Source: Chrysomallon squamiferum (Eukaryota > Animalia > Mollusca). Taken from it: 64,000 bases of DNA. The notes under the pieces were generated by a model. The model did not search any database, was not told the DNA's origin, and was given only the letters and a program-made list of their open reading frames with translations. The stretch lies in assembly GCA_012295275.1 (NCBI GenBank), contig CM022676.1:11594001-11658000 (forward strand), given 5' to 3'. Of this stretch, positions 5,226 through 41,012 are shown piece by piece. Each line of letters opens with the position of its first letter. Position 1 is the stretch's first letter. Position numbers and translations under genes: made by a program.

Positions 5226-6316
5226 TAAGTTATATCAGAATTATTTCACTCTAAACAGTGATATCAACTTTATATTAATGAATAGTAAGTGAAATCAATT
5301 TCATTTCTGTGTATATTAAATATTTTATACCAAGTAATACTGAATTTATTTTATATTGAGTTTATTTGAGTGTATTTGATATATAGGTTTTGAAATGTAT
5401 ACTGAATGATATCCACTTTATATTAATGTACACTATTGATATCAAATTTATTTCATAGTATTGTTACAGGATCTTTGTTACTGGGTTCAGAAATTCATAG
5501 CTAAACACAGCATTGTAGGGATTGTCATAGAGTACCCACTGTATTATTCTGTACCCATTTGTACCATGCTATACAATACAAAACACACCACTGTGTGTGT
5601 GAGTGTGTGTGAGAAAAACCATCTCCCTCATGGTGAGTGGTTATTTCGTTTTGTTTGTGTTACATCCATTTCCAAAAAACATTAAATATTTGTGTTTCTT
5701 CAAACGGGAACAGCATTCTTTTCATCTGCCCCTAAATAGGATTAATTAGTCTCGAAAGTGATAATAATAACAGACATACAGACCTTCGTAAAATAATACG
5801 TACTGTTCTTTGTCATCTGATTCAAACACGTTATTACCTCCCTTTATTTACATGCTATAATGAATTGATGTGTTAAAACAACCCAATGAAGGAAAGACAA
5901 ACAAATTTCTTTGTTTTGAACTTTTTATTTCAAGTAAGAAAACAGAAGAGGAAAAGAAAACAAAATTTAAAAAAAAAAAAAAAACAGAATAAATTAATAA
6001 AATTGTTTTCAGAAAACGACAGAAATAAAAAAAAAACAAACATACTGCACTGTTTTCAAAACTTTTCATAAATAAATAAATAATGCGAGTGATTTTTAGA
6101 AAATCTGGTTTGATTAAGGAAATGAACGACATTCGCTGGCTCACAGAACTGACACTTTTTTTTCTTCTTTTTCCTTTTTTTTTTTTTTTTTTTTTTTTTA
6201 ACAATATGCACTTTTTTTCTCTAAATCTTTCTCTCTCTTTCTTTCTCTCAATCTCTTTCATTCCATTCTTGTCCTGACAAAGCCAGTTAACGCAGTGGAG
6301 AGGGCGAGTCACGTGT

Positions 6317-6660
6317 TCAGATGGTGATGATGGAGTCGAAGGAGTCGAGGCTGATCTCCGAGTTGTTTCTGTGCTTCTCGTCGACGAGGTTGGCGATGTC
6401 GGACTTGCCCATGTTGCGCAGCGCCCGGCAGAGCACGTCAACGGCGACGTCGCGCCGGTTCTTCAGCCGCCGCTTCCAGTACATGAGAATCTTGTACGTC
6501 ACGTCCGCCATGCCCATTCCGTTTGATATGGCGTCGAAACCGAGGCCGGTGATCGTGCTGTCGGGAAGGTCAAGGTGAACGGCTAACGTGAGGCCTTCCG
6601 GAACAACTTTAGAGAGACTCATCAAACTTCTTCCCGTGAGCACGCGGGACTCTTTTTCAA
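6317..6660 (-). CDS. ZU5/death-domain protein (DTHD1/PIDD-like), exon 7: C-terminal death domain
   Basis: Acceptor CAG at 6663-6661, phase 1. Encodes VEKESRVLTGRSLMSLSKVVPEGLTLAVHLDLPDSTITGLGFDAISNGMGMADVTYKILMYWKRRLKNRRDVAVDVLCRALRNMGKSDIANLVDEKH..., which fits the death-domain pattern (LAxHL, ILxxW, LxxALxxMGxxDIA). Stop at 6319-6317. Confidence 0.88.
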
Positions 6661-6663
6661 CTG

Positions 6664-6694
<31 letters not shown>

Positions 6695-6915
6695 ACAAAT
6701 AAATAACAGGAATAGTAGTGGGGGTGAAGTAGTAGAAAATTGTATTGATGTTTATAGGATACATACACAAAGACACACACGCACATACATATATGTATGT
6801 ATATATGTAGTTGGTTCTTGTGATGCTTTTACTAACAGAGTAGTGTTTAGAAATCGAACCCGTTGTACTTAGTTTATTTTATATTTTATCTGTATTTGTG
6901 TGTCTGTGTGTTTAC

Positions 6916-7718
6916 CTGTTTTTGTTCGTCTCGGACAGCGGGTCAGTCGCTCGGTGACCTCCAGTGAGATCTGTTTCTGCGTCTTGCCGGGCAGCACGTC
7001 AGTTCTCAGCGCCACCTGGGGCCGGATCTGCACGTTCGCGCTCAAACTCAGCCTCGTCCTGCGAGCACTGGGCGCGGGTTGCGTCACTTCCTCTGTGGGC
7101 TTCACTTCCGGTGGCTTCTCTTCATCTTTCGGCTTGAAGTACTCTTTGACCGCGTCCTCGCTGATCTCCAGGTTGAAAACGAGGCTGTCGCCCGAAACGA
7201 CGACGTCGTCTTCCTGCACCGGCGTCAACTCGACCACGCCTATCAGCGCCTTCTCCTCGTTGTTGCTCGGCTCGATGGCGAACTGCCGGTAACTCTCCGG
7301 CACTTGCTTCAGAAACTGCAGCACCCGGTTATCATGGTAATCGCTGTGGAAACTGGCCTTGACGTCATTCTCGATGTGGATCTCCCACCGCTGTCCGTCC
7401 TGCAGCTCCAGACAGTCCGAGCTCCGCGTCTGCTTCCGTCCCCTCACCCCTCGCTTGCTGAACGGCTTCTCATCGTCTTCGTCGTCATCGACGTTTGCGT
7501 ATCTCTTGACGACGACGTAGCCGCTGGACGTGCGTTTGCTGATCCGCGACTCCGCCGTCTGCTGCAGAAAGGCTTCCACCGTCAGCGTCCACGTCTTCTC
7601 CTCCACTGACAGGAACACGACCACCTCGCCCTTCTCGCGTGATATCTCCTTTTCCACGACGGACACGGCGTGAGGCATCGCCCTCAGCCTGTCTGGCTTC
7701 ATCTGACAGACACAGAAC
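6916..7718 (-). CDS. ZU5/death-domain protein, exon 6 (end of ZU5-b, UPA-like region, linker)
   Basis: Acceptor gttacag (CAG at 7721-7719) gives HLSR-FCVCQMKPDRL in frame with the phase-2 upstream exon. Donor GTAAAC at 6915. Long GC-rich open frame. Confidence 0.85.
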
Positions 7719-8070
7719 CTGTAACATCAAAGTAACAAAACCTGTAACATCATCGAAGTAACAAAACGTGTAACAAAACACACACAGAGAGAGAGATATG
7801 CATGTATGTATCTGACAGACACAAAACCTGTAACATCAAAGTAACAAAACCTGTAACATCATCAAAGTAACAAAACCTGTAACATCATCGAAGTAACAAA
7901 ACCTGTAACAAAACACACACACAGAAATATATATATATGTATGTATGTATCTGACAGACACAAAACCTGTAACAAAACACACATAGAGATATATATATGT
8001 ATGTATGTATCTGACAGACACAAAACCTGTAACATCAAAGTAACAAAACCTGTAACCACATCAGTGTAAC
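7719..8070. repeat. Intronic repeat made of duplicated copies of the exon-6 acceptor junction
   Basis: tctgacagacacaaaacctgtaac (minus strand gttacag|GTTTTGTGTCTGTCAGA) recurs at ~7811, 7950 and 8010. The shorter aaaacctgtaac occurs about 8 times. Confidence 0.85.
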
Positions 8071-8404
8071 AAAAACACACACACACACGTACAAATATAT
8101 ATTTATGTATTTATGTATGTATGCATGTGTATGTGTGTGTGTATATGTGCATATATAATTGTTATACACACACACTCTCACACGTACCACAGAAATATAA
8201 ACTCATTCACAAAAAAAAAAAACAACGTACATTCATACGCATACACTAACAAACACATACATACATCATCAAATACATATATACATACACACACATTAAC
8301 ATACACATACACACACACATGTATAGACACACACGCATGTACATAGATCCACAAATACACACGCCCGCACACACGCACACACTTATTCATGTAAGTATTC
8401 ATAC

Positions 8405-8697
8405 CTTGACAAGTGTTTGACATCAAAAGACACGGAATTTCTGGAAAACTTGTAGTGCGACTCCACCACCCTCCAGCCCCCCTCCTCCGTCCTGCTCAGC
8501 ACCACGACGTCGTTGGAGTCGTCGCCGTCAAGCTCGACGCCCGCCGGAAGCGGAAGTTTGACGGTGGCGGCGCGTCTGAAGTTGGGCTGCACGTTGGGCA
8601 GGAAGTCGATGAACTCGGACAGCCGCAGCAGATTGTGACACTCGAGCGCGAACTGGCGCGCGATGTCGTCCAGCCTGTTCACTGACACCGGCTCAAT
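8405..8697 (-). CDS. ZU5/death-domain protein, exon 5 (second ZU5)
   Basis: ttgcag acceptor, phase 0; GTATGA donor, phase 2. Encodes IEPVSVNRL...FRRAATVKLPLP...VVVLSRTEEGGW...VSFDVKHLS, a typical ZU5 second half. Confidence 0.87.
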
Positions 8698-9062
8698 CTG
8701 CAACACAAAGCGTCAAACACAGCGTTAAACACAGCGTTACGTTTACACACAGCGTTACACTTGAACACAGCTTTACATGTAGACAGTTTTACATTTAAAT
8801 AGTTTTATATTTAAACACAGCTTTACATTGGAACATCCTAGTTCTATCTACAAAACAGTTTTTACATTTAAACCGTTTTACATTTAAACATCCTAGTTCT
8901 ATCTATAAAAAACAATTTTACATTTAAACATCCAAGTTCTATCTATAAAACACTATTTTACATTTAAACACACAGTTTACCCATTTTTCATCACTTTTTG
9001 ATCGGAGACTGAATTACTAATCAACAGATTCCATCTAAACAAGACAACATTATTTTATACAA

Positions 9063-12000
9063 TACCTGGATGTTCTGAGACTACGTTTTACATTGGATGA
9101 TCTGTGACTACGTTTTACATTGGATGTTCTGTGACTACGTTTTACATTGGATGTTCTGTGACTACTTTTAACATCTTTGAATATTGGATGTTCCTGCAGA
9201 GAACACTGGATGTTCTGTGACTTTTCACATTAGATGTTCTGTGACTACTTTTTACATTGGATGTTCTGTTACTACTTTTAACATCTGTGAATATTTTGTT
9301 CCGTACCTGCAGAGAACACTGGATGTTCTATGACTACGTTTTACATTGGATGTTCTGTGACTACGTTTTACATCTGTGAATATTTTGATGTTCTGAGAAC
9401 ACTGTGACTGTTTTTTTTAACATTTTTTGAATATTTTGTTTGAATATTTTGCAGAGAACACTGGATGTTCTGTGACTACCTGCAGAGAACACTGGATGTT
9501 CTATGACTACGTTTTTGTTCTGTGACTACGTTTTTTTGTTTCTGTGACTACGTTTTACATCTGTGAATATTTTGTTCCGTACCTGCAGAGAACACTGGAT
9601 GTTCTGTGACTACGTTTTACATTGGATGTTCTGTGACTACGTTTTACATCTGTGAATATTTTGTTCCGTACCTGCAGAGAACACTGGATGTTCTGTGACT
9701 ACGTTTTACATTGGATGTTCTGTGACTACGTTTTACATCTGTGAATATTTTGTTCCGTACCTGCAGAGAACACTGGATGTTCTGGATGTTTTACATTGTG
9801 ACTACGTTTTACATTGGATGTTCTGTGACTACGTTTTACATTGGATGTTCTGTGACTACGTTTTACATTGGATGTTCTGTGACTACGTTTTACATCTGTG
9901 AATATTTTGTTTCGTACCTGCAGAGAACACTGGATGTTCTGTGACTACGTTTTACATTGGATGTTCTGTGACTACTTTTTACATTGGATGTTCTGTTACT
10001 ACGTTTTACATCTGTGAATATTTTGTTTGGATACCTGCAGAGAACATTTTGGATGTTCTGTGGACTACGTTTTACATTGGATGTTCTGTGACTACGTTTT
10101 ACATTGGATGTTCTGTGACTACGTTTTACATCTGTGAATATTTTGTTTCGTACCTGCAGAGAACACTGGATGTTCTGTGACTACGTTTTACATTGGATGT
10201 TCTGTGACTACTTTTTACATCTGTGAATATTTTGTTTCGTACCTGCAGAGAACACTGGATGTTCTGTGACTACGTTTTACATTGGATGTTCTGTGACTAC
10301 TTTTTACATCTGTGAATATTTTGTTTCGTACCTGCAGAGAACACTGGATGTTCTGTGACTACGTTTTACATTGAATGTTTTGTTTTCGTACCTGCAGAGA
10401 ACACTGGATGTTCTGTGACTACGTTTTACATCTGTGAATATTTTGTTTCGTACCTGCAGAGAACACTGGATGTTCTGTGACTACGTTTTACATCTGTGAA
10501 TATTTTGTTTCGTACCTGCAGAGAACATTGGATGTTCTGTGACTACGTTTTACATCTGTGAATATTTTGTTTCGTACCTGCAGAGAACACTGGATGTTCT
10601 GTGACTACGTTTTACATCTGTGAATATTTTGTTTCGTACCTGCAGAGAACACTGGATGTTCTGTGACTACGTTTTTACATCTGTGAATATTTTGTTTCGT
10701 ACCTGCAGAGAACACTGGATGTTCTGTGACTACGTTTTACATCTGTGAATATTTTGTTTCGTACCTGCAGAGAACACTGGATGTTCTGTGACTACGTTTT
10801 ACATCTGTGAATATTTTGTTTCGTACCTGCAGAGAACACTGGATGTTCTGTGACTACGTTTTACATCTGTGAATATTTTTTTCATACCTGCAGAGAAATG
10901 GATGTTTGTTTCGTACCTGTACCAGAGAGAACACTGGATGTTCTGTGACTACGTTTTACATCTGTGAATATTTTGTTTTCGTACCTGCAGAGAACACTGG
11001 ATGTTCTGTGACTACGTTTTACATCTGTGAATATTTTGTTTCGTACCTGCAGAGAACACTGGATGTTCTGTGACTACGTTTTACATCTGTGAATATTTTG
11101 TTTCGTACCTGCAGAGAACACTGGATGTTCTGTGACTACGTTTTACATCTGTGAATATTTTGTTTCGTACCTGCAGAGAACACTGGATGTTCTGTGACTA
11201 CGTTTTACATCTGTGAATATTTTGTTTCGTACCTGCAGAGAACACTGGATGTTCTGTGACTACGTTTTACATCTGTGAATATTTTGTTTCGTACCTGCAG
11301 AGAACACTGGATGTTCTGTGACTACATCTGTGAATATTTTTACATCTGTGAATATTTTGTTTCGTACCTGCAGAGAACACTGGATGTTCTGTGACTACGT
11401 TTTACATCTGTGAATATTTTGTTTCGTACCTGCAGAGAACACTGGATGTTCTGTGACTACGTTTTACATCTGTGAATATTTTGTTTCGTACCTGCAGAGA
11501 ACACTGGATGTTCTGTGACTACGTTTTACATCTGTGAATATTTTGTTTCGTACCTGCAGAGAACACTGGATGTTCTGTGTTTTACATCGTTTCGTACCTG
11601 CAGAGAACACTGGATGTTTTGACTACGTTTTACATCTGTGAATATTTTGTTTCACTGGATGTTCCTGCAGAGAACACTGGATGTTCTGTGACTACGATTT
11701 TACATCTGTGAATATTTTGTTTCGTACCTGCAGAGAACACTGGATGTTCTGTGACTACGTTTTACATCTGTGAATATTTTGTTTCGTACCTGCAGAGAAC
11801 ACTGGATGTTCTGTGACTACGTTTTACATCTGTGAATATTTTGTTTCGTACCTGCAGAGAACACTGGATGTTCTGTGACTACGTTTTACATCTGTGAATA
11901 TTTTGTTTCGTACCTGCAGAGAACACTGGATGTTCTGTGACTACGTTTTACATCTGTGAATATTTTGTTTCGTACCTGCAGAGAACACTGGATGTTCTGT

Positions 12001-15000
12001 GACTACGTTTTACATCTGTGAATATTTTGTTTCGTACCTGCAGAGAACACTGGATGTTCTGTGACTACGTTTTACATCTGTGAATATTTTGTTTCGTACC
12101 TGCAGAGAACACTGGATGTTCTGTGACTACGTTTTACATCTGTGAATATTTAGTTTCGTACCTGCAGAGAACACTGGATGTTCTGTGACTACGTTTTACA
12201 TCTGTGAATATTTTGTTTCGTACCTGCAGAGAACACTGGATGTTCTGTGACTACGTTTTACATCTGTGATTATTTAGTTTCGTACCTGCAGAGAACACTG
12301 GATGTTCTGTGACTACGTTTTACATCTGGTTTGTTCTCTGCAGAGAACACTGGATGTTCTGTGACTACGTTTTACATCTGTGAATATTTTGTTTCGTACC
12401 TGCAGAGAACACTGGATGTTCTGTGACTACGTTTTACATCTGTGAATATTTTGTTTCGTACCTGCAGAGAACACTGGATGTTCTGTGACTACGTTTTACA
12501 TCTGTGAATATTTTGTTTCGTACCTGCAGAGAACACTGGATGTTCTGTGACTACGTTTTACATCTGTGAATATTTTGTTTCGTACCTGCAGAGAACACTG
12601 GATGTTCTGTGACTACGTTTTACATCTGTGAATATTTTGTTTCGTACCTGCAGAGAACACTGGATGTTCTGTGACTACGTTTTACATCTGTGAATATTTT
12701 GTTTCGTACCTGCAGAGAACACTGGATGTTCTGACTGTTTACATCTGTTACATCTGTGACATATGTTTTGTTTCGTACCTGCAGAGAACACTGGATGTTC
12801 TGTGACTACGTTTTACATCTGTGAATATTTTGTTTCGTACCTGCAGAGAACACTGGATGTTCTGTGACTACGTTTTTACATCTGTGAATATTTTGTTTCG
12901 TACCTGCAGAGAACACTGGATGTTCTGTGACTCTGTGAATATTTTTACATCTGATGTTCTGTGATATTTTGTTTCGTACCTGCAGAGAACACTGGATGTT
13001 CTGTGACTACGTTTTACATCTGTGAATATTTTGTTTCGTACCTGCAGAGAACACTGGATGTTCTGACTACGTTTTGACTACGTTTTACATCTGCAGAGAA
13101 CACTGGATGTTCTGTGTTTTACATCTGTGAATATTTTTGTTTCGTACCTGCAGAGAACACTGGATGTTCTGTGACTACGTTTTACATCTGTGAATTTTTG
13201 TTTCGTACCTGCAGAGAACACTGGATGTTCTGTGACTACGTTTTACATCTGTGATTATTTTGTTTCGTACCTGCAGAGAACACTGGATGTTCTGTGACTA
13301 CGTTTTACATCTGTGATTATTTTGTTTCGTACCTGCAGAGAACACTGGATGTTCTGTGACTGTTTTACATCTGTGATTATTTTGTTTACATCTGCAGAGA
13401 ACACTGGATGTTCTGTGACTACGTTTTACATCTGTGATTACTTAGTTTCGTACCTGCAGAGAACACTGGATGTTCTGTGACTACGTTTTACATCTGTGAT
13501 TATTTTGTTTCGTACCTGCAGAGAACACTGGATGTTCTGTGACTACGTTTTACATCTGTGATTATTTAGTTTCGTACCTGCAGAGAACACTGGATGTTCT
13601 GTGACTACGTTTTACATCTGTGATTATTTTGTTTCGTACCTGCAGAGAACACTGGATGTTCTGTGACTACGTTTTACATCTGTGATTATTTGTGAACACT
13701 GGATGTTCTTGTTTTTCTGTGAATATTTTGTTTCGTACCTGCAGAGAACACTGGATGTTCTGTGACTACGTTTTACATCTGTGAATATTTTGTTTCGTAC
13801 CTGCAGAGAACACTGGATGTTCTTGACTACGTTTTACATCGTACCTGCACCTGCAGAGAACACTGGATGTTCTGTGACTACGTTTTACATCTGTGATTAT
13901 TTTGTTTCGTACCTGCAGAGAACACTGGATGTTCTGTGATTACTACTTTACATCTGTGANNNNNNNNNNNNNNNNNNNNNNNNNNNNNNNNNNNNNNNNN
14001 NNNNNNNNNNNNNNNNNNNNNNNNNNNNNNNNNNNNNNNNNNNNNNNNNNNNNNNNNNNNNNNNNNNNNNNNNNNNNNNNNNNNNNNNNNNNNNNNNNNN
14101 NNNNNNNNNNNNNNNNNNNNNNNNNNNNNNNNNNNNNNNNNNNNNNNNNNNNNNNNNNNGTACCTGCAGAGAACACTGGATGTTCTGTGACTACGTTTTA
14201 CATCTGTGATTATTTTGTTTCGTACCTGCAGAGAACACTGGATGTTCTGTGACTACGTTTTACATCTGTGAATATTTTGTTTCGTACCTGCAGAGAACAC
14301 TGGATGTTCTGTGACTACTTTTTACATCTGTGAATATTTTGTTTCGTACCTGCAGAGAACACTGGATGTTCTGTGACTACGTTTTACATCTGTGATTATT
14401 TAGTTTCGTACCTGCAGAGAACACTGGATGTTCTGTGACTACGTTTTACATCTGTGATTATTTTGTTTCGTACCTGCAGAGAACACTGGATGTTCTGTGA
14501 CTACGTTTTACATTGGATGTTCTGTGACTACGTTTTACATTGGATGTTCTGTGACTACGTTTTACATCTGTGAATATTTTGTTTCGTACCTGCAGAGAAC
14601 ACTGGATGTTCTGTGACTACGTTTTACATCTGTGAATATTTTGTTTCGTACCTGCAGAGAACACTGGATGTTCTGTGACTACGTTTTACATCTGTGAATA
14701 TTTTGTTTCGTACCTGCAGAGAACACTGGATGTTCTGTGACTACGTTTTACATCTGTGATTATTTTGTTTCGTACCTGCAGAGAACACTGGATGTTCTGT
14801 GACTACGTTTTACATCTGGATGTTTCGTACCTGCAGAGAACACTGGATGTTCTGTGACTACGTTTTACATCTGTGTTCTGTGATTTTTACATTGTGAGTT
14901 TCGTACCTGCAGAGAACACTGGATGTTCTGTGACTACGTTTTACATCTGTGAATATTTTGTTTCGTACCTGCAGAGAACACTGGATGTTCTGTGACTACG

Positions 15001-18000
15001 TTTTACATCTGTGAATATTTTGTTTCGTACCTGCAGAGAACACTGGATGTTCTGTGACTACGTTTTACATCTGACTACCTGCAGAGAACACTGGATGTTC
15101 TGTTTTTACATCTGTGAATATTTTGTTTCGTACCTGCAGAGAACACTGGATGTTCTGTGACTACGTTTTACATCTGTGATTATTTTGTTTCGTACCTGCA
15201 GAGAACACTGGATGTTCTGTGACTACGTTTTACATCTGGATGATTATTTATTTTGTTTCGTACCTGCAGAGAACACTGGATGTTCTGTGACTACGTTTTA
15301 CATCTGTGAATATTTTGTTTCGTACCTGCAGAGAACACTGGATGTTCTGTGACTACGTTTTACATCTGTGAATATTTTGTTTCGTACCTGCAGAGAACAC
15401 TGGATGTTCTGTGACTACGTTTTACATCTGTGAATATTTTGTTTCGTACCTGCAGAGAACACTGGATGTTCTGTGACTACGTTTTACATCTGTGATTATT
15501 TAGTTTCGTACCTGCAGAGAACACTGGATGTTCTGTGACTACGTTTTACATCTGTGAATATTTTGTTTCGTACCTGCAGAGAACACTGGATGTTCTGTGA
15601 CTACGTTTTACATCTGTGATTACTTTGTTTCGTACCTGCAGAGAACACTGGATGTTCTGTGACTACGTTTTACATCTGTGATTACTTTGTTTCGTACCTG
15701 CAGAGAACACTGGATGTTCTGTGACTACGTTTTACATCTGTGATTATTTTGTTTCGTACCTGCAGAGAACACTGGATGTTCTGTGACTACGTTTTACATC
15801 TGTGATTATTTTGTTTCGTACCTGCAGAGAACACTGGATGTTCTGTGACTACGTTTTACATCTGTGATTATTTTGTTTCGTACCTGCAGAGAACACTGGA
15901 TGTTCTGTGACTACGTTTTACATCTGTGATTATTTTGTTTCGTACCTGCAGAGAACACTGGATGTTCTGTGACTACGTTTTACATCTGTGATTATTTTGT
16001 TTCGTACCTGCAGAGAACACTGGATGTTCTGTGACTACGTTTTACATCTGTGATTATTTTGTTTCGTACCTGCAGAGAACACTGGATGTTCTGTGACTAC
16101 GTTTTACATCTGTGATTATTTAGTTTCGTACCTGCAGAGAACACTGGATGTTCTGTGACTACGTTTTACATTGGATGTTCTGTGACTACGTTTTACATCT
16201 GTGATTATTTTGTTTCGTACCTGCAGAGAACACTGGATGTTCTGTGACTACGTTTTACATCTGTGATTACTTTTGTTTCGTACCTGCAGAGAACACTGGA
16301 TGTTCTGACTGACTACGTTTTACATCTGTGATTACTTTGTTTCGTACCTGCAGAGAACACTGGATGTTCTGTGACTACGTTTTACATCTGTGATTACTTA
16401 GTTTCGTACCTGCAGAGAACACTGGATGTTCTGTGACTACGTTTTACATCTGTGAATATTTTGTTTCGTACCTGCAGAGAACACTGGATGTTCTGTGACT
16501 ACGTTTTACATCTGTGATTACTTAGTTTCGTACCTGCAGAGAACACTGGATGTTCTGTGACTACGTTTTACATCTGTGATTACTTTGTTTCGTACCTGCA
16601 GAGAACACTGGATGTTCTGTGACTACGTTTTACATCTGTGATTACTTAGTTTCGTACCTGCAGAGAACACTGGATGTTCTGTGACTACGTTTTACATCTG
16701 TGATTATTTAGTTTCGTACCTGCAGAGAACACTGGATGTTCTGTGACTACGTTTTACATCTGTGATTACTTAGTTTCGTACCTGCAGAGAACACTGGATG
16801 TTCTGTGACTACGTTTTACATCTGTGATTACTTTGTTTCGTACCTGCAGAGAACACTGGATGTTCTGTGACTACGTTTTACATCTGTGATTACTTAGTTT
16901 CGTACCTGCAGAGAACACTGGATGTTCTGTGACTACGTTTTACATCTGTGATTACTTAGTTTCGTACCTGCAGAGAACACTGGATGTTCTGTGATTACTT
17001 AGTTTCGTACCTGCAGAGAACACTGGATGTTCTGTGACTACGTTTTACATCTGTGATTACTTTGTTTCGTACCTGCAGAGAACACTGGATGTTCTGTGAC
17101 TACGTTTTACATCTGTGATTACTTAGTTTCGTACCTGCAGAGAACACTGGATGTTCTGTGACTACGTTTTACATCTGTGATTACTTTGTTTCGTACCTGC
17201 AGAGAACACTGGATGTTCTGTGACTACGTTTTACATCTGTGATTACTTAGTTTCGTACCTGCAGAGAACACTGGATGTTCTGTGACTACGTTTTACATCT
17301 GTGATTACTTAGTTTCGTACCTGCAGAGAACACTGGATGTTCTGTGACTACGTTTTACATCTGTGATTATGTTCTGTGTTTTTACGTACCTGCAGAGAAC
17401 ACTGGATGTTCTGTGACTACGTTTTACATCTGTGATTACTTAGTTTCGTACCTGCAGAGAACACTGGATGTTCTGTGACTACGTTTTACATCTGTGATTA
17501 CTTTGTTTCGTACCTGCAGAGAACACTGGATGTTCTGTGACTACGTTTTACATCTGTGATTACTTAGTTTCGTACCTGCAGAGAACACTGGATGTTCTGT
17601 GACTACGTTTTACATCTGTGATTACTTAGTTTCGTACCTGCAGAGAACACTGGATGTTCTGTGATTACTTAGTTTCGTACCTGCAGAGAACACTGGATGT
17701 TCTGTGACTACGTTTTACATCTGTGATTACTTAGTTTCGTACCTGCAGAGAACACTGGATGTTCTGTGACTACGTTTTACATCTGTGATTACTTAGTTTC
17801 GTACCTGCAGAGAACACTGGATGTTCTGTGACTACGTTTTACATCTGGATGTTCTGTGACTTACTTTACTTTTGTTTCGTACCTGCAGAGAACACTGGAT
17901 GTTCTGTGACTACGTTTTACATCTGTGATTATTTAGTTTCGTACCTGCAGAGAACACTGGATGTTCTGTGACTACGTTTTACATCTGTGATTACTTAGTT

Positions 18001-20665
18001 TCGTACCTGCAGAGAACACTGGATGTTCTGTGACTACGTTTTACATCTGTGATTACTTAGTTTCGTACCTGCAGAGAACACTGGATGTTCTGTGACTCTG
18101 TGATTACGTTTTACATCACTGGATGTTCTGACTACGTTTTACATCTGTGAATATTTAGTTTCGTACCTGCAGAGAACACTGGATGTTCTGTGACTACGTT
18201 TTACATCTGTGATTACTTAGTTTCGTACCTGCAGAGAACACTGGATGTTCTGTGACTACGTTTTACATCTGTGATTACTTAGTTTCGTACCTGCAGAGAA
18301 CACTGGATGTTCTGTGACTACGTTTTACATCTGTGAATATTTTGTTTCGTACCTGCAGAGAACACTGGATGTTCTGTGACTACGTTTTACATCTGTGATT
18401 ACTTTTACATCTGTGTTTCGTACCTGCAGAGAACACTGGATGTTCTGTGACTACGTTTTACATCTGTGATTACTTAGTTTCGTACCTGCAGAGAACACTG
18501 GATGTTCTGTGACTACGTTTTACATCTGTGATTATCTTAGTTTCGTACCTGCAGAGAACACTGGATGTTCTGTGACTGTGATTACGTTTGTTCTGTGACT
18601 CTGTGATTACTTAGTTTCGTACCTGCAGAGAACACTGGATGTTCTGTGACTACGTTTTACATCTGTGATTACTTAGTTTCGTACCTGCAGAGAACACTGG
18701 ATGTTCTGTGACTACGTTTTACATCTGTGATTACTTAGTTTCGTACCTGCAGAGAACACTGGATGTTCTGTGACTACGTTTTACATCTGTGATTACTTAG
18801 TTTCGTACCTGCAGAGAACACTGGATGTTCTGTGACTACGTTTTTACATCTGTGATTACTTAGTTTCGTACCTGCAGAGAACACTGGATGTTCTGTGACT
18901 ACGTTTTACATCTGTGATTACTTTTAGTTTCGTACCTGCAGAGAACACTGGATGTTCTGTGACTACGTTTTACATCTGTGATTACTTAGTTTCGTACCTG
19001 CAGAGAACACTGGATGTTCTGTGATTACTTAGTTTCGTACCTGTAGAGAACACTGGATGTTCTGTGATTACTTAGTTTCGTACCTGCAGAGAACACTGGA
19101 TGTTCTGTGACTACGTTTTACATCTGTGATTACTTAGTTTCGTACCTGCAGAGAACACTGGATGTTCTGTGACTACGTTTTACATCTGTGATTACTTAGT
19201 TTCGTACCTGCAGAGAACACTGGATGTTCTGTGACTACGTTTTACATCTGTGATTACTTAGTTTCGTACCTGCAGAGAACACTGGATGTTCTGTGACTAC
19301 GTTTTACATCTGTGATTACTTTAGTTTCGTACCTGCTGGATGTTCTGTGACTACGTTTTACATCTGTGATTACTTAGTTTCGTACCTGCAGAGAACACTG
19401 GATGTTCTGTGACTACGTTTTACATCTGTGATTACTTAGTTTCGTACCTGCAGAGAACACTGGATGTTCTGTGACTACGTTTTACATCTGTGATTACTTA
19501 GTTTCGTACCTGCAGAGAACACTGGATGTTCTGTGACTACGTTTTACATCTGTGATTACTTAGTTTCGTACCTGCAGAGAACACTGGATGTTCTGTGACT
19601 ACGTTTTACATCTGTGATTACTTAGTTTCGTACCTGCAGAGAACACTGGATGTTCTGTGACTACGTTTTACATCTGTGATTACTTAGTTTCGTACCTGCA
19701 GAGAACACTGGATGTTCTGTGACTACGTTTTACATCTGTGATTACTTAGTTTCGTACCTGCAGAGAACACTGGATGTTCTGTGACTACGTTTTACATCTG
19801 TGATTACTTAGTTTCGTACCTGCAGAGAACACTGGATGTTCTGTGACTACGTTTTACATCTGTGATTACTTAGTTTCGTACCTGCAGAGAACACTGGATG
19901 TTCTGTGATTACTTAGTTTCGTACTGGATGTTCTGTGACTACGTTTTACATCTGTGATTACTTAGTTTCGTACCTGCAGAGAACACTGGATGTTCTGTGA
20001 CTACGTTTTACATCTGTGATTACTTAGTTTCGTACCTGCAGAGAACACTGGATGTTCTGTGATTACTTAGTTTCGTACCTGCAGAGAACACTGGATGTTC
20101 TGTGACTACGTTTTACATCTGTGATTACTTAGTTTCGTACCTGCAGAGAACACTGGATGTTCTGTGACTACGTTTTACATCTGTGATTACTTAGTTTCGT
20201 ACCTGCAGAGAACACTGGATGTTCTGTGACTACGTTTTACATCTGTGATTACTTAGTTTCGTACCTGCAGAGAACACTGGATGTTCTGTGACTACGTTTT
20301 ACATCTGTGATTACTTAGTTTCGTACCTGCAGAGAACACTGGATGTTCTGTGACTACGTTTTACATCTGTGATTAACACTGGATTTCTGTGACCTGCAGA
20401 GAACACTGGATGTTCTGTGACTACGTTTTACATCTGTGATTACTTAGTTTCGTACCTGCAGAGAACACTGGATGTTCTGTGACTACGTTTTACATCTGTG
20501 ATTACTTAGTTTCGTACCTGCAGAGAACACTGGATGTTCTGTGACTACGTTTTACATCTGTGATTACTTAGTTTCGTACCTGCAGAGAACACTGGATGTT
20601 CTGTGACTACGTTTTACATCTGTGATTACTTAGTTTCGTACCTGCAGAGAACACTGGATGTTCTG
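9063..20665. repeat. 62-bp satellite (~180 units visible) derived from the exon-4 donor junction
   Basis: Unit cctgcagagaacactggatgttctgtgactacgttttacatctgtgattacttagtttcgta; period 62 (19571, 19633, 19695). The terminal unit overlaps the last 24 nt of exon 4. A 27-bp sub-repeat occurs at the far end, and the array contains an assembly gap. Confidence 0.97.
13960..14159. other. Assembly gap (200 N)
   Basis: Run of N inside the satellite; the true array length is unknown. Confidence 0.99.
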
Positions 20666-20833
20666 GTCGATGCCCTTTTTCGGAAAGCGGATGCTGATTT
20701 GTCTGTTTCTGCGCGCGTTGTACAGACAGCCTTGCGTGGTGACGTCAAACGTCTCCTTCCGCGGGGTGAACGTCACGACGAACTCGCCCAGCTTCGACAG
20801 CTCCAACTCCACATACGGTGGCGTGGTTTCCTG
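20642..20833 (-). CDS. ZU5/death-domain protein, exon 4 (ZU5-a end, ZU5-b start)
   Basis: ttcagCAG tandem acceptor. 192 nt, phase 0-0. Encodes QETTPPYVELELSKLGEFVVTFTPRKETFDVTTQGCLYNARRNRQISIRFPKKGIDQNIQCSLQ. Donor GTACGA at 20641. Confidence 0.85.
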
Positions 20834-21056
20834 CTGAAATCATAGCAGTGTTGTCGTTGTCGTAAATTTTGCAATAATAATAACCACAGCAACAAATAGT
20901 AATACTATGTTTTATAATAATTACTGTTATTAAGTATTGTTGAAACCATGGTGGTGTTGTTGTCGCTGTTATTATTATATTATTATTATGATTATGATTA
21001 TACGTATTATGATTTTTTAATTTTTCAATTGTTGTTATTTTTGACTGTCGTCGTCG

Positions 21057-21090
<34 letters not shown>

Positions 21091-21232
21091 AACGCACATG
21101 ACAATCACAACAACCTTTGGACGTTTACTTGTAGCATTTAATAAACATTACTATAAAGAGACAAATACATCTGGTGCAACAAATTAATGCAAAAAATCAA
21201 ACAAGCAAACAAACAAACAAACAAATAAATAC

Positions 21233-21569
21233 CGTTTTCAAAAATCCAATGTTTATCCAATCATCTTCGTCGTTCCATTTTCCTTTGACGTTCAGTTCGC
21301 AGAACTCCTCGTCCACTGGGTAGAACGGGAGTTTGATGATGACTGCTTTCTTCATCGTCGTCGCTGTTGTTGAGATCACAAAAAACTCGCTGGTGACGTG
21401 TTCGTCGGGCGCCAGCTGGACCGACTGGCGCCATCTATCGGACGGGTGTACTGCTGTACAGGTCACGTGATCCTTCTTGCCAAACGTACCTTCCTCCACG
21501 GAGAGCTTCGCCTGCAGGGGCAGTGTGAAGTTACCTCCCTTTTTTCCAGGCGTGACCGTCACAGACAGA
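21233..21569 (-). CDS. ZU5/death-domain protein, exon 3 (first ZU5)
   Basis: gtcag acceptor, phase 2; GTATTT donor, phase 0. Encodes LSVTVTPGKKGGNFTLPLQAKLSVEEGTF...HVTSEFFVI...KKAVIIKLPF...DDWINIGFLKT. Confidence 0.83.
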
Positions 21570-21689
21570 CTGACAATGTAATAGAAGATACAATATCTGT
21601 GCGTCCGTCTGTCGGTCTTATGTGCTGTGTGTGTGCGTGTGTGCGTGTGTGCGTGTGTATGTGTGTATGTGTGTATGTGTGTATGTGTG

Positions 21690-22042: not shown

Positions 22043-22123
22043 GGGGGTTTGGATGACACATGTTTTGTCTCGCTCACAATGGAACAGTTGCACGAGTTAT
22101 CTTTCTTTGAATCACAGTTTTCA
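22043..22123 (-). CDS. ZU5/death-domain protein, exon 2
   Basis: tttccag acceptor, GTGAGT donor, 81 nt, phase 2-2, open frame ENCDSKKDNSCNCSIVSETKHVSSKP. Confidence 0.7.
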
Positions 22124-23072: not shown

Positions 23073-23715
23073 TCTTACTACAGGTAAACGCTCTGTATGT
23101 GATGTCTGCTGTTCCCATCCCACTATACAATACATCAACACAAATTTCACATTTTCTTTTCAGCATTTCCGACCTTTTGTTTTCTACATCATCATCAACA
23201 TTATTATTTTCGGTTGTAAAAATGTTTCTATCGATAAACATAGCAACACACGTGAGTGTTCGTATCTGTATTTATTACAAAGAGTTGGTATGTGTTGTGT
23301 GTGTGTGGGGGGGGGGGTGTTTATACCTGTGTATATCTGCGTGTGTCTACCAGGACATTTGTCCACAGAAAAGCTGCTTAAAAAAAAAAAAAAAAACCAA
23401 AAATATAAAATCGACAATAACAACACATTCATGCACAAAATAAATGTTTTCTTTAAGTGTTCGCCGTTAACACTTGAGTGAAAGTGTCGTGACGTCACAG
23501 ACAGTCGAAAGTCACGAGGTTGTTCAGATGTAGCAATGTCTACCAATGTCTACCCGACTTTGTTTTATGTAGCAATATAACCTCGGTTTCACAATTTGTT
23601 GCACTTGTAAATTTCATTTCGGTCTAACGGACTTAATCGAGATTAACCCGAGCAGTTAATCGTGGGATTTCGGAAAACTTCCTCAACCTGTAACATTGAA
23701 GCCTGTTGGAGCCGT

Positions 23716-24945
23716 TGTTCATAACTCAGAGTAACAACGTGTACGACGTGCCACAAACGACTTTGTTCATAACTCAGAGTAACAACGTGTACGACGTGCC
23801 ACAAACGACTTTGTTCATAACTCAGAGTAACAACGTGTACGACGTGCCACAAACGACTTTGTTCATAACTCAGAGTAACAACGTGTACGACGTGCCACAA
23901 ACGACTTTGTTCATAACTCAGAGTAACAACGTGTACGACGTGCCACAAACGACTTTGTTCATAACTCAGAGTAACAACGTGTACGACGTGCCACAAACGA
24001 CTTTGTTCATAACTCAGAGTAACAGCGTGTAACGTGCCACAAACGACTTTGTTCATAACTCAGAGTAACAACGTGTACGACGTGCCACAAACGACTTTGT
24101 TCATAACTCAGAGTAACAACGTGTACGACGTGCCACAAACGACTTTGTTAATAACTAACTGTAACAGCGTGTACGACGTGCCACAAACGATTGAATAACT
24201 CACTGTAACAGCGTGTACGACGTGCCACAAACGACTTTGTTAATAACTAACTGTAACAGCGTGTACGACGTGCCACAAACGACTTTGTTAATAACTCACT
24301 GTAACAACGTGTACGACGTGCCACAAACGACTTTGTTAATAACTCACTGTAACAGCGTGTACGACGTGCCACAAACGACTTTGTTAATAACTAACTGTAA
24401 CAGCGTGTACGACGTGCCACAAACGACTTTGTTAATAACTAACTGTAACAGCGTGTACGACGTGCCACAAACGATTGAATAACTCACTGTAACAGCGTGT
24501 ACGACGTGCCACAAACGACTTTGTTAATAACTCACTGTAACAGCGTGTACGACGTGCCACAAACGACTTTGTTAATAACTCACTGTAACAACGTGTACGA
24601 CGACGCCACAAACGACTTTGTTAATAACTCACTGTAACAGCGTGTACGACGTGCCACAAACGACTTTGTTAATAACTAACTGTAACAGCGTGTACGACGT
24701 GCCACAAACGACTTTGTTAATAACTCACTGTAACAACGTGTACGACGTGCCACAAACGACTTTGTTAATAACTAACTGTAACAACGTGTACGACGTGCCA
24801 CAAACGATTGAATAACTCACTGTAACAACGTGTACGACGTGTCACAAACGATTGAATAACTAACTGTAACAGCGTGTACGACGTGCCACAAACGATTGAA
24901 TAACTAACTGTAACAGCGTGTACGACGTGTCAAAAGCGATTGTTA
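23716..24945. repeat. 48-bp minisatellite (~25 copies, with a 42-bp variant)
   Basis: Unit ataactcagagtaacaacgtgtacgacgtgccacaaacgactttgttc; reads as a 16-aa repeat in the ORF track. The variant type changes at ~24150. Confidence 0.95.
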
Positions 24946-25139
24946 ACAACGCTGATCTCATGGGTGTTTATCTTGGTGTTTATCTTTCATAAGCTACTAG
25001 TGTATTACTCGAGGTTTATTAAGCCCGACACAAAAACTTGATATTCTACTCGACTTCTTTGTGTCGGCGCGTGGAGGTGTTGTCGTCGGCGACAAACCAT
25101 AAAACTATCTCTGGAATGAATCGTCTTTACATTGGCAAC

Positions 25140-31973: not shown

Positions 31974-32005
31974 CTTTCGACGTCCGTGTTGTTATTTTCA
32001 TCCAT
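31974..32005 (-). CDS. ZU5/death-domain protein, candidate alternative first coding exon (distal)
   Basis: gcggcATGG Kozak-like start, MDENNNTDVE, AG|GTAGGA donor, phase 2 compatible with exon 2. Upstream in-frame TAG. Lies in a CpG-rich island (~31980-32240). Confidence 0.5.
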
Positions 32006-39276: not shown

Positions 39277-40623
39277 TTACTTTTTACACCACGTAAATAT
39301 TTTTATTTTCCCGGTGAAGCGTTCTCCCACGTAGAGTTTGTTGTCATCACAACAGACACACGAAGGTTTGGACAGTCCATCCTGGTCAGTGAGGATGTCA
39401 CGTGTCATGTTACCATCTCGTGACAACTGAACAACACAATTTCTATCAGAATCACATCCAAAAATATTGCCCTCCCTGTCACATGTAACATCTGTCAACT
39501 TACCCAGTCTGTCTAAATCACGTGACTTCCATCTGACGTCACCTGATGACGTCACACAAAATAGACTGTTTACAGTTTTTCTCTCTGACACAACAATCAG
39601 ACATTGATCGTGAACTGTGAGACACAATGGTCAATCAAACATTGATCGTGAACTGTGAGACACAATGGTCCGGGGATCAAATCTCTTGTCATAGAATTAA
39701 TGAGCTGACCACTGTCTGTCAGTTATGTTTTGATCAGTTTGACTTTTTCAAATTTAAAAACAATATTTTTTTTGACATGGTCGAAAACAACAACAACATT
39801 GCTGATCACGTTTGTTGAATGGATAAGAGGAAGTTGATATCTGTTTATGATTTTCTTTCTAAACAAAAACATTTTACACAACTATTGATAATCTGATTTT
39901 TTTTAAACAAATCTTCACCAAGTTTGACGAGGATCATTTTTTGTGTTTCCATGTCAATGTTTTTGAGTGTCTGTTTGACAATCTGTTTGTTTGTGTTCAT
40001 ATTTCTCCAAACAGTTTGTCAATTTCTGAGTTTACAAAGTTCTGAGATTTTTTTTTTTCTTTTAAAGAGATTAACCTGTCTTGTTTGTTTTTTTGATAGG
40101 ACTGACTCTGATTTTTTGAAAAATCCTGTTTGATCATTTTTTACCAATCCTTCAGTAAACAGTTTGTCAATTTCTAAGTTAACAAACTTCTGACATTTTT
40201 CTATTTCTCTTATTAGCCTGTCTTGTTCTTTGTGGACTGCGGCTGTGAAATCTGTTATTAGTGTGTTACCAATCCTTCTGACCTCTTCTGTGGTGTCCAC
40301 GACGTTGATGTCGACGGCTTGGCGAAGTTGCTCAATCTTTTCATCCATCTCTGACTGAAGAATTTCTTTGTAGGATTTGAGACAGTCAGAAACAGAATTC
40401 AGAAGTGAAATGTGGCCTCCCTTTTTAGCTGAAATAAATAAATAAATAAATAATAATCATAACAACAATAATAACAACTAATAAAGATATGGGCACAATG
40501 TGAAGAGTTGTAGAATTTATTTATCATTTAATTTTAAAATATGAGTAGAAAAATGTGATCTAATTGTTTATGATGTGATTGTTAATACACGACAATTTTT
40601 TTTAGTTAAATGATCGGTCTATC

Positions 40624-40682
<59 letters not shown>

Positions 40683-41012
40683 TTCTATGATATTATAATA
40701 TAGCTAAAGACGATACTCTGACTCACAGAATTTTGAGTGTTCTATTTTATTAATGGCGTCCACTAGTGACTTGTTTATAGCGAATTGATCTGCCCATGTT
40801 TCCACTGGTCTCGTGCTGTCTGGGATTTTGACATTCTGCCTACAGAACGGGCAGGCGATTTGTACGTCGTTGTTGTTGTGACTTTTGCTGATGTAATTTT
40901 GTAGGCATTTAGAACAGAACGAGTGTCCGCAGCACAAAACTCGTGGATTGTCGAAAATGTCCAAACAGAGAGAGCATGAAATGTTGTCATCGGAGTTTGA
41001 AGCTGTTGCCAT
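39277..41012 (-). pseudogene. TRIM-like RING / coiled-coil / NHL-type beta-propeller gene, copy A (frameshifted as assembled)
   Basis: Exon 41014-40727 has ATG at 41012 and an intact C3HC4 RING (CSLCLDIFDNPRVLCCGHSFCSKC...CPFCR). It splices in phase 1 to exon 40428-39277, which has a coiled coil and NHL-like blades (DVTCDREGNIFGCDSDRNCVVQLSRDG...KLYVGE). The frame breaks at 40060-39630 (homopolymer run, stops, 32-bp duplication at 39600-39670). Confidence 0.8.

Follow-up and report, generated by a model that had tools for sequence, protein, structure and literature searches.

Intron 4 of a seven-exon gene of the gastropod mollusc Chrysomallon squamiferum contains a very large tandem array built from the gene's own exon 4-intron 4 junction. 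The gene lies within a 64,000-nucleotide (nt) stretch of assembly GCA_012295275.1 (contig CM022676.1, positions 11,594,001 to 11,658,000 of the forward strand), which we call the window and whose coordinates are used throughout; a slash marks a splice boundary. The array, at 9063-20665 on the minus strand, was described in an original prediction made from the letters alone, and re-examination of the sequence bore out the coordinates, strand, repeat unit and exon 4 junction given there.

Results

Organization of the host gene

The seven exons, all on the minus strand, give an open frame of 693 amino acids (aa); all six introns have GT..AG ends, and intron 4 measures 11,944 nt as assembled. The coding part of exon 1 (31974-32005) was placed by frame and by likeness to the start of the Gigantopelta sequence P0001, whereas exon 2 (22043-22123, 81 nt) has a 3' end at a loose end of an RNA contig and a 5' end set by frame. 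An RNA contig and homology support both exon 3 (21233-21569), which encodes the first ZU5 domain (Pfam ZU5, E 7e-4, just under the cut-off), and the 192-nt exon 4 (20642-20833, phase 0-0), whose last 24 nt are 20642-20665. Exon 5 (8405-8697), joined directly to exon 4 in RNA, is defined by the RNA contig and by frame; exon 6 (6916-7718) by homology and by RNA covering 7436-7716; and exon 7 (6317-6660), with a Death domain and the stop codon, by Pfam, its junction with exon 6 being placed by frame and homology. At the tandem CAGCAG acceptor of exon 4 (20830-20835, minus strand) the RNA contig takes the upstream AG, so that the exon starts at 20833.

Structure of the junction-spanning array

Head-to-tail 62-base-pair (bp) units start at the end of exon 4 (20642) and continue through intron 4 to about 9063. 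By suffix-length comparison, each consists of the last 24 nt of exon 4 and the first 38 nt of intron 4. The prediction had correctly derived the unit from an exon end plus an intron start, but its division into 41+21 nt gives way to 38+24, because the AG that precedes the proposed 21-nt cassette is supplied by the exon's own Gln codon.

Between 9040 and 20680 the minus strand holds 165 copies of the donor motif CTGCAG/GT, against 1 elsewhere on the minus strand of the window and 0 on its plus strand; the 21-mer cassette occurs 167 times in the same interval and 0 times elsewhere in the window. Both are so nearly confined to the array that chance is not at issue. The span amounts to 183.5 unit-lengths, and thus the earlier figure of about 180 copies stands as length divided by 62, but repeat and motif counts put the intact donors at about 165. 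Donor-to-donor intervals are exactly 62 nt in 112 of 162 cases, and 42 units (of the 162 intervals) are identical to unit 1. The 21-nt, phase 0-0 cassette proposed for every intact unit is preceded by AG and followed by GT in 160 cases, but the 41+21 layout holds in only 111 of the 162 intervals. There are 152 extra exact copies of the 8+8 junction 16-mer, and the donor is thus reiterated identically, in tandem, within the intron. With a 200-N assembly gap inside the array (13960-14159), which the original prediction did not mention, the assembly does not settle how long the array is. A metagenome scan with the 30-nt junction motif returned 0 matches.

Units differ along the array. Type A (T10, G13, A16) is the same as the real intron start, with its in-frame TAA, and dominates the 5' part; type D (A10, A13, T16) lacks the TAA at +10 and dominates the 3' part, and intermediates between the two exist. 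Motif counts place the mostly type A zone at 16347-20641 and a middle and 3' zone, with intermediate types and then type D, at 10331-16346, both limits being approximate. In the degenerate tail (9063-10330) a 27-bp sub-unit without a donor is dominant: over the last ~1.2 kilobases (kb) its 10-mers reach 27-37 copies, compared with 7-12 for 10-mers of the pyrimidine run and donor. Read-through from the real donor always meets the TAA of unit 1, as predicted, although along the array TAA stands at +10 to +12 in only 65 of 162 units.

Among the 112 regular units, variation recurs only at positions 10, 13 and 16 (62, 63 and 42 units), and beyond these there are two singletons. That the three sites avoid exon and donor positions has a chance P of 0.10-0.13; by this weak test there is no detectable extra constraint on splice motifs within the array. 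The assembly contains 54 copies of the type A motif, and its type A part may be collapsed. The pattern would fit ordinary tandem turnover, with the youngest copies adjoining the exon. An inverted repeat in the last 21 nt of exon 4 (window 20668-20680 region, and all unit copies) is predicted to form a 7-bp hairpin, which may have favoured slippage.

Reality and length of the array

Eleven sequencing runs, two of them recorded as RNA, were available; four were compared at 20560-21620 and four at 6250-9060, seven different runs in all. In DNA run X4, unitigs of the unit reach depths of 8,581 and 9,021, versus 21-25 in adjacent bins, and in DNA run X1 the unit depth summed at 20629 is 33,700, versus 75 on the exon 4 contig. 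The resulting unit-to-flank ratios of 345-449 (X1 and X4) are rough and are not copy numbers, since summing unitigs inflates the count, the assembly may derive from one of the runs, and unit copies elsewhere in the genome could add to the depth. In X1 the exon 4 contig breaks off 6 nt into the intron, after 30 nt of sequence common to the array, which fits an exon that continues into a repeat. We conclude that the array is genuine; the DNA runs suggest that it is no shorter than assembled, with a copy number of at least 165, perhaps 350-450.

RNA evidence at the exon 4-exon 5 junction

In RNA run X8, a single contig of 1,292 nt (depth 10.5) joins exons 2 to 6, covering 21568-21237, 20834-20642, 8702-8403 and 7716-7436. 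Its record positions are contiguous across the exon 4-exon 5 junction (716 then 717), with one copy of the exon end and of its peptide, and of its loose ends that at 20642 matches the start of exon 5, and that at 8702 the unique end of exon 4. The loose ends and the unbroken record positions together mean that the authentic donor CAG/GTACGA (20633-20644; donor 1, at 20642) was joined to exon 5 (8697) with no inserted base. The direct 20642-to-8697 junction named in the original prediction is therefore seen in mature RNA, in one X8 contig, with no extra copy of the heptapeptide NIQCSLQ. The most upstream donor is used in 1 of 1 RNA contigs on exon 4, contigs being unable to reveal minor forms. 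The depth of 0 for X8 and X9 on the unit at 20560-20631 corresponds to the part without cover in filtered contigs and was not counted as evidence.

Two further observations concern the 3' end of intron 4. An X8 contig at 8870-9060 shows 12 differences, two of them common to DNA run X2, and the sequence at 8908-8968 is a different one in DNA runs X2 and X7, so that this end of the intron is structurally polymorphic.

Strength, frame and folding of the copied splice sites

None of the 162 downstream donors keeps the reading frame, every one of them meeting a stop, and by the established rule their products would be decay substrates. If donor 1 were instead spliced to an internal YAG/GT acceptor, rebuilding the exon end and its donor (a ratchet), 2 of 6,981 subsequent donor pairs would keep frame.

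The copies do have the form of a ratchet point, as was originally pointed out: the internal YAG/GT acceptor has 12/18 pyrimidines at -20 to -3, compared with 11-13/18 at the gene's six real acceptors, and the regenerated donor CAG/GTACGA matches CAG/GTAAGT at 7 of 9 positions, equal to the gene's best donors. Two caveats apply. The internal acceptor has an AG at -14, while the nearest upstream AG of the six real acceptors lies at -25 or further, and its pyrimidine tract is predicted to be more often paired (unpaired probability 0.17-0.21 in the copies versus 0.31-0.61 at real acceptors, that of intron 4 being 0.31). The acceptor of the 21-nt cassette has only 7/18 pyrimidines, against 11-13/18 at the six real acceptors, and another AG at -8.

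Structural masking of the downstream donors was rejected, predicted accessibility being 0.47 for donor 1 and 0.44-0.50 for 11 copies. The 245-nt fold does not exceed those of shuffled sequences in stability (z -0.79), 48 of 200 shuffles folding as well.

The encoded protein and the exon 4 peptide

By Pfam, ZU5 is confined to exon 3, exon 7 carries Death, and exons 4-6 have no domain. Over 65 aa, exon 4 shares 82% identity with Gigantopelta P0001, and the sole match to exon 5 among 145 candidates is Gigantopelta aegis LOC121386465 (56%); in the Atlas, exon 5 had no clear family, with ZU5 in rank 7 (score 0.91). A homologue search with exon 6 returned 0 matches among 1,796 candidates, and a profile-free search of representatives gave 39 matches. 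A profile of seven homologues matches 6 ankyrin sequences (ankyrin chains, E 1e-9 to 4e-4) and aligns exons 4-5 with the second ZU5 of ankyrin-1. The proposed location of the junction in a ZU5 domain is thus upheld for the second ZU5, but Pfam itself recognizes ZU5 only in exon 3.

NIQCSLQ occurs once in 6 of 6 Gigantopelta isoforms; these isoforms and all 7 aligned homologues cross the exon 4-exon 5 junction without an insertion. The peptide falls within strand 216-223 of the P0001 model (pLDDT, the predicted local distance difference test, about 91), which is predicted to belong to the core of the second ZU5 domain. Since it is conserved and lies in this strand, the pyrimidine run and the YAG are codons, and their ratchet-like look needs no splicing explanation.

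Like LOC121386465 and the ZU5 tandem of ankyrins, the host protein has two ZU5-like domains and a C-terminal Death domain; unlike ankyrins, it has no ankyrin repeats in the 693-aa frame. This layout may resemble those of DTHD1 and PIDD.

Other arrays and features of the window

A second, small junction-seeded array (7712-8060, minus strand; motif counts and RNA) repeats the intron 5 acceptor core TTACAG/G in 8 extra copies. The copies lie at 8049-7741, some with ~17 nt of exon 6-like sequence, and the RNA contig uses the last, exon-proximal, authentic acceptor (the joint skips 686). Seeded arrays are thus carried by 2 of the gene's 12 junctions, and the window holds 18 other complex minisatellites. 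Enrichment of such arrays at junctions was considered and rejected: a second array among the other 11 junctions has a chance of ~0.1, which is not significant, in an estimate based on 21 arrays, of which three are pieces of the exon 4 array.

Intron 1 of the host gene contains a 48-bp minisatellite (23715-24950; 26 copies, 95% matches). On the plus strand, at 692-1560, an exon-like frame (~1330-1525) with a hydrophobic stretch is preceded by a 24-36-bp tandem array that ends ~20 nt before the likely acceptor. A minus-strand gene at 39280-41010 has a Cys/His spacing that presumably marks a RING finger; its long downstream exon appears frameshifted, which points to a pseudogene or to consensus errors.

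Discussion

A probably tolerated minisatellite at an active donor

We consider it probable that the array is a very large minisatellite spanning the exon 4 donor, which expanded neutrally and is tolerated through commitment of the splicing machinery to the first donor. A neutral, tolerated expansion, one of several options in the original prediction, fits best with the direct junction in one RNA contig and the single NIQCSLQ of the orthologue. A 62-bp tandem duplication across the exon 4 junction would have been amplified by slippage or unequal exchange, leaving the haplotype gradient and the decayed 3' tail. Donor 1 would win because no other copy has a real acceptor as its partner across an exon of normal size (192 nt); it would also be transcribed first, and the choice of the first donor would follow what has been shown for human F7. 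Rare use of another donor would produce a stop 9 nt past the exon, and the transcript would be cleared by nonsense-mediated decay (NMD), so that the array may cost the gene little.

Several points weigh against this interpretation. First-donor scanning was demonstrated with no more than 12 copies, and in mammalian cells (PMC1557585), whereas the mollusc array has 165 or more. Leakage to downstream donors is plausible by analogy with CBS and IFI6, in which two downstream copies are used. The donor core and the exon-derived part are almost invariant among the 112 regular units, with one singleton change, and this could equally come from selection. RNA support comes from one contig of one run at a depth of 10.5, rare isoforms drop out of contigs, and the other RNA run, X9, has no cover of exon 4. 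Moreover, the mature junction is identical whether the intron is removed in one step or stepwise, and the X8 contig at 8870-9060 (250 nt, depth 3.2), which extends 46 letters into the array tail, may represent pre-mRNA, genomic DNA or a splicing intermediate.

Alternative explanations

Instead of one-step removal, the array could act as a self-regenerating ratchet, in which splicing of donor 1 to an internal YAG/GT rebuilds the exon end with its donor, and repetition of this step removes the intron piecemeal while leaving the mRNA unchanged. The internal acceptor is within the range of the real ones (12/18 pyrimidines), the regenerated donor is good (7/9), and the units are bounded by AG and GT, like a recursive-splicing exon (RS-exon). 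YAG/GT exon ends can serve as 3' splice sites (PMC10156609), the observed RNA junction is compatible with stepwise removal, and an RNA contig is present on the 3' end of intron 4. Set against this, a competing AG stands at -14, where real acceptors have none nearer than -25; the pyrimidine run lies in the predicted 7-bp hairpin; and the motif consists of codons of a conserved peptide, which makes selection for a ratchet unnecessary. In flies, nearly all recursive segments are longer than 1 kb (PMC6110457), and no intermediate is seen in the assembled contigs here. We therefore regard the ratchet as unlikely. To the same unlikely degree, the array could be a self-erasing satellite, a ladder of hundreds of recursive sites arising from one duplication and growing without cost.

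Less likely still is a leak to donor 2 or 3, generating stop-containing transcripts such that output would vary with array length, through NMD tuning or titration of the U1 small nuclear ribonucleoprotein (snRNP). The donor copies share one sequence and match the gene's best donors in strength (7/9), CBS and IFI6 use two downstream copies (PMC1557585), and all products would carry a stop and so be hidden in steady-state contigs. The sole RNA contig on exon 4, however, leaves at the first donor into exon 5, and according to the same text F7 splicing is the same with 1 to 12 monomers. A U1 sink created by one locus is without support, and neither this nor NMD tuning by copy number, both raised in the original prediction, gained positive evidence.

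Variable microexon insertion, also raised there, would add NIQCSLQ copies to the second ZU5 domain; 160 suitable cassettes exist (21 nt, phase 0-0, AG before and GT after), but their acceptor is poor (7/18 pyrimidines, AG at -8), no insertion occurs in the 1 RNA contig or in any of 7 aligned homologues, and the peptide, found once in the orthologue, is a predicted strand (residues 216-223 of P0001) aligning with ankyrin ZU5, which makes this explanation very improbable. Equally improbable is an assembly artefact, or an array far shorter than assembled or mis-joined: the 200-N gap and many irregular units with homopolymer indels typical of noisy reads might suggest one, but unit unitigs are very deep in both of the DNA runs examined at the junction, and the X1 exon 4 contig ends where its sequence becomes shared with the array.

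Implications

Tolerance through first-donor commitment, the interpretation that we favour, would carry first-donor selection beyond mammals, where the listed cases have at most 25 pseudo-sites and up to 12 monomers were tested, into a mollusc whose array has 165 copies or more, and the intron 5 array of the same gene adds a mirror case at an acceptor. Positions +10, +13 and +16 differ along the array, and ratcheting would create a join of exon 4 to type D sequence that is absent from the genome; with these marker bases, the birth of recursive sites by tandem duplication is testable with ordinary total-RNA reads. Were the self-erasing satellite true, at least one published recursive-site pipeline would be blind to such sites (PMC10156609). 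The importance of the locus is limited by a host gene that is uncharacterised, with no phenotype in view.

Comparison with known systems

In the Rogers model of intron birth by tandem duplication, the duplicated segment is said to contain AG/GT. The likeness to the snail array is a duplicated segment that offers an upstream donor and a possible downstream acceptor (PMC3265369). Unlike in that model, the snail duplication straddles a junction that was already there and makes an old intron longer, with no new intron shown. Tandem duplication and gene structure are also treated in PMC2812944 and PMC10078293.

With recursive splicing, ratchet points and RS-exons, as presented in PMC6110457, PMC6224609 and PMC10156609, the array shares an AG/GT after a pyrimidine run and a long intron, and the 5' site lying 62 nt downstream might serve to define an RS-exon. 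Known recursive sites are single, mostly have spacings above 1 kb and are shown by junction, saw-tooth or lariat reads, whereas the snail candidates occur at ~16 per kb and derive from coding sequence. Fly introns have up to seven recursive sites (PMC6110457). In PMC10156609, YAG/GT exon ends are used as 3' sites, and the recursive-site pipeline filters out any site that lies in a repeat or no more than 100 nt from an annotated one. Among the matches listed from an open-access library, none described recursive splicing inside a junction-spanning minisatellite, an array of comparable size, or one in gastropods.

The closest relatives are the human junction-spanning minisatellites, a published architecture to which the original prediction did not refer and for which PMC1557585 gives 37-bp monomers in 5-9 copies in F7 intervening sequence (IVS) 7, 25 pseudo-sites in IFI6 (6-16), 15-20 monomers in CBS IVS13, 100-bp monomers in 10-15 copies in LMNB2, and 81-bp monomers in 16-18 copies in PDGF intron 4. 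According to the same text, only the most upstream of the 5-9 identical F7 donors is used, likewise with 1 to 12 monomers; LMNB2 and PDGF use the authentic donor only, and IFI6 and CBS use two downstream copies besides it. As in the F7/CBS/IFI6 class, the first snail monomer spans the real exon-intron boundary, the donor is reiterated identically, and the most upstream copy is used. The snail array differs from that class in having at least 165 copies, about 6x the largest there, in its gastropod host, and in a haplotype gradient that marks position along it; its unit also includes 24 nt of exon that end in a pyrimidine-rich YAG, giving each copy the look of a 3' site as well, which the F7 donor, TGG/GT, lacks. 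The architecture of the snail array is nevertheless that of the human F7, CBS and IFI6 minisatellites, and only its scale is extreme.

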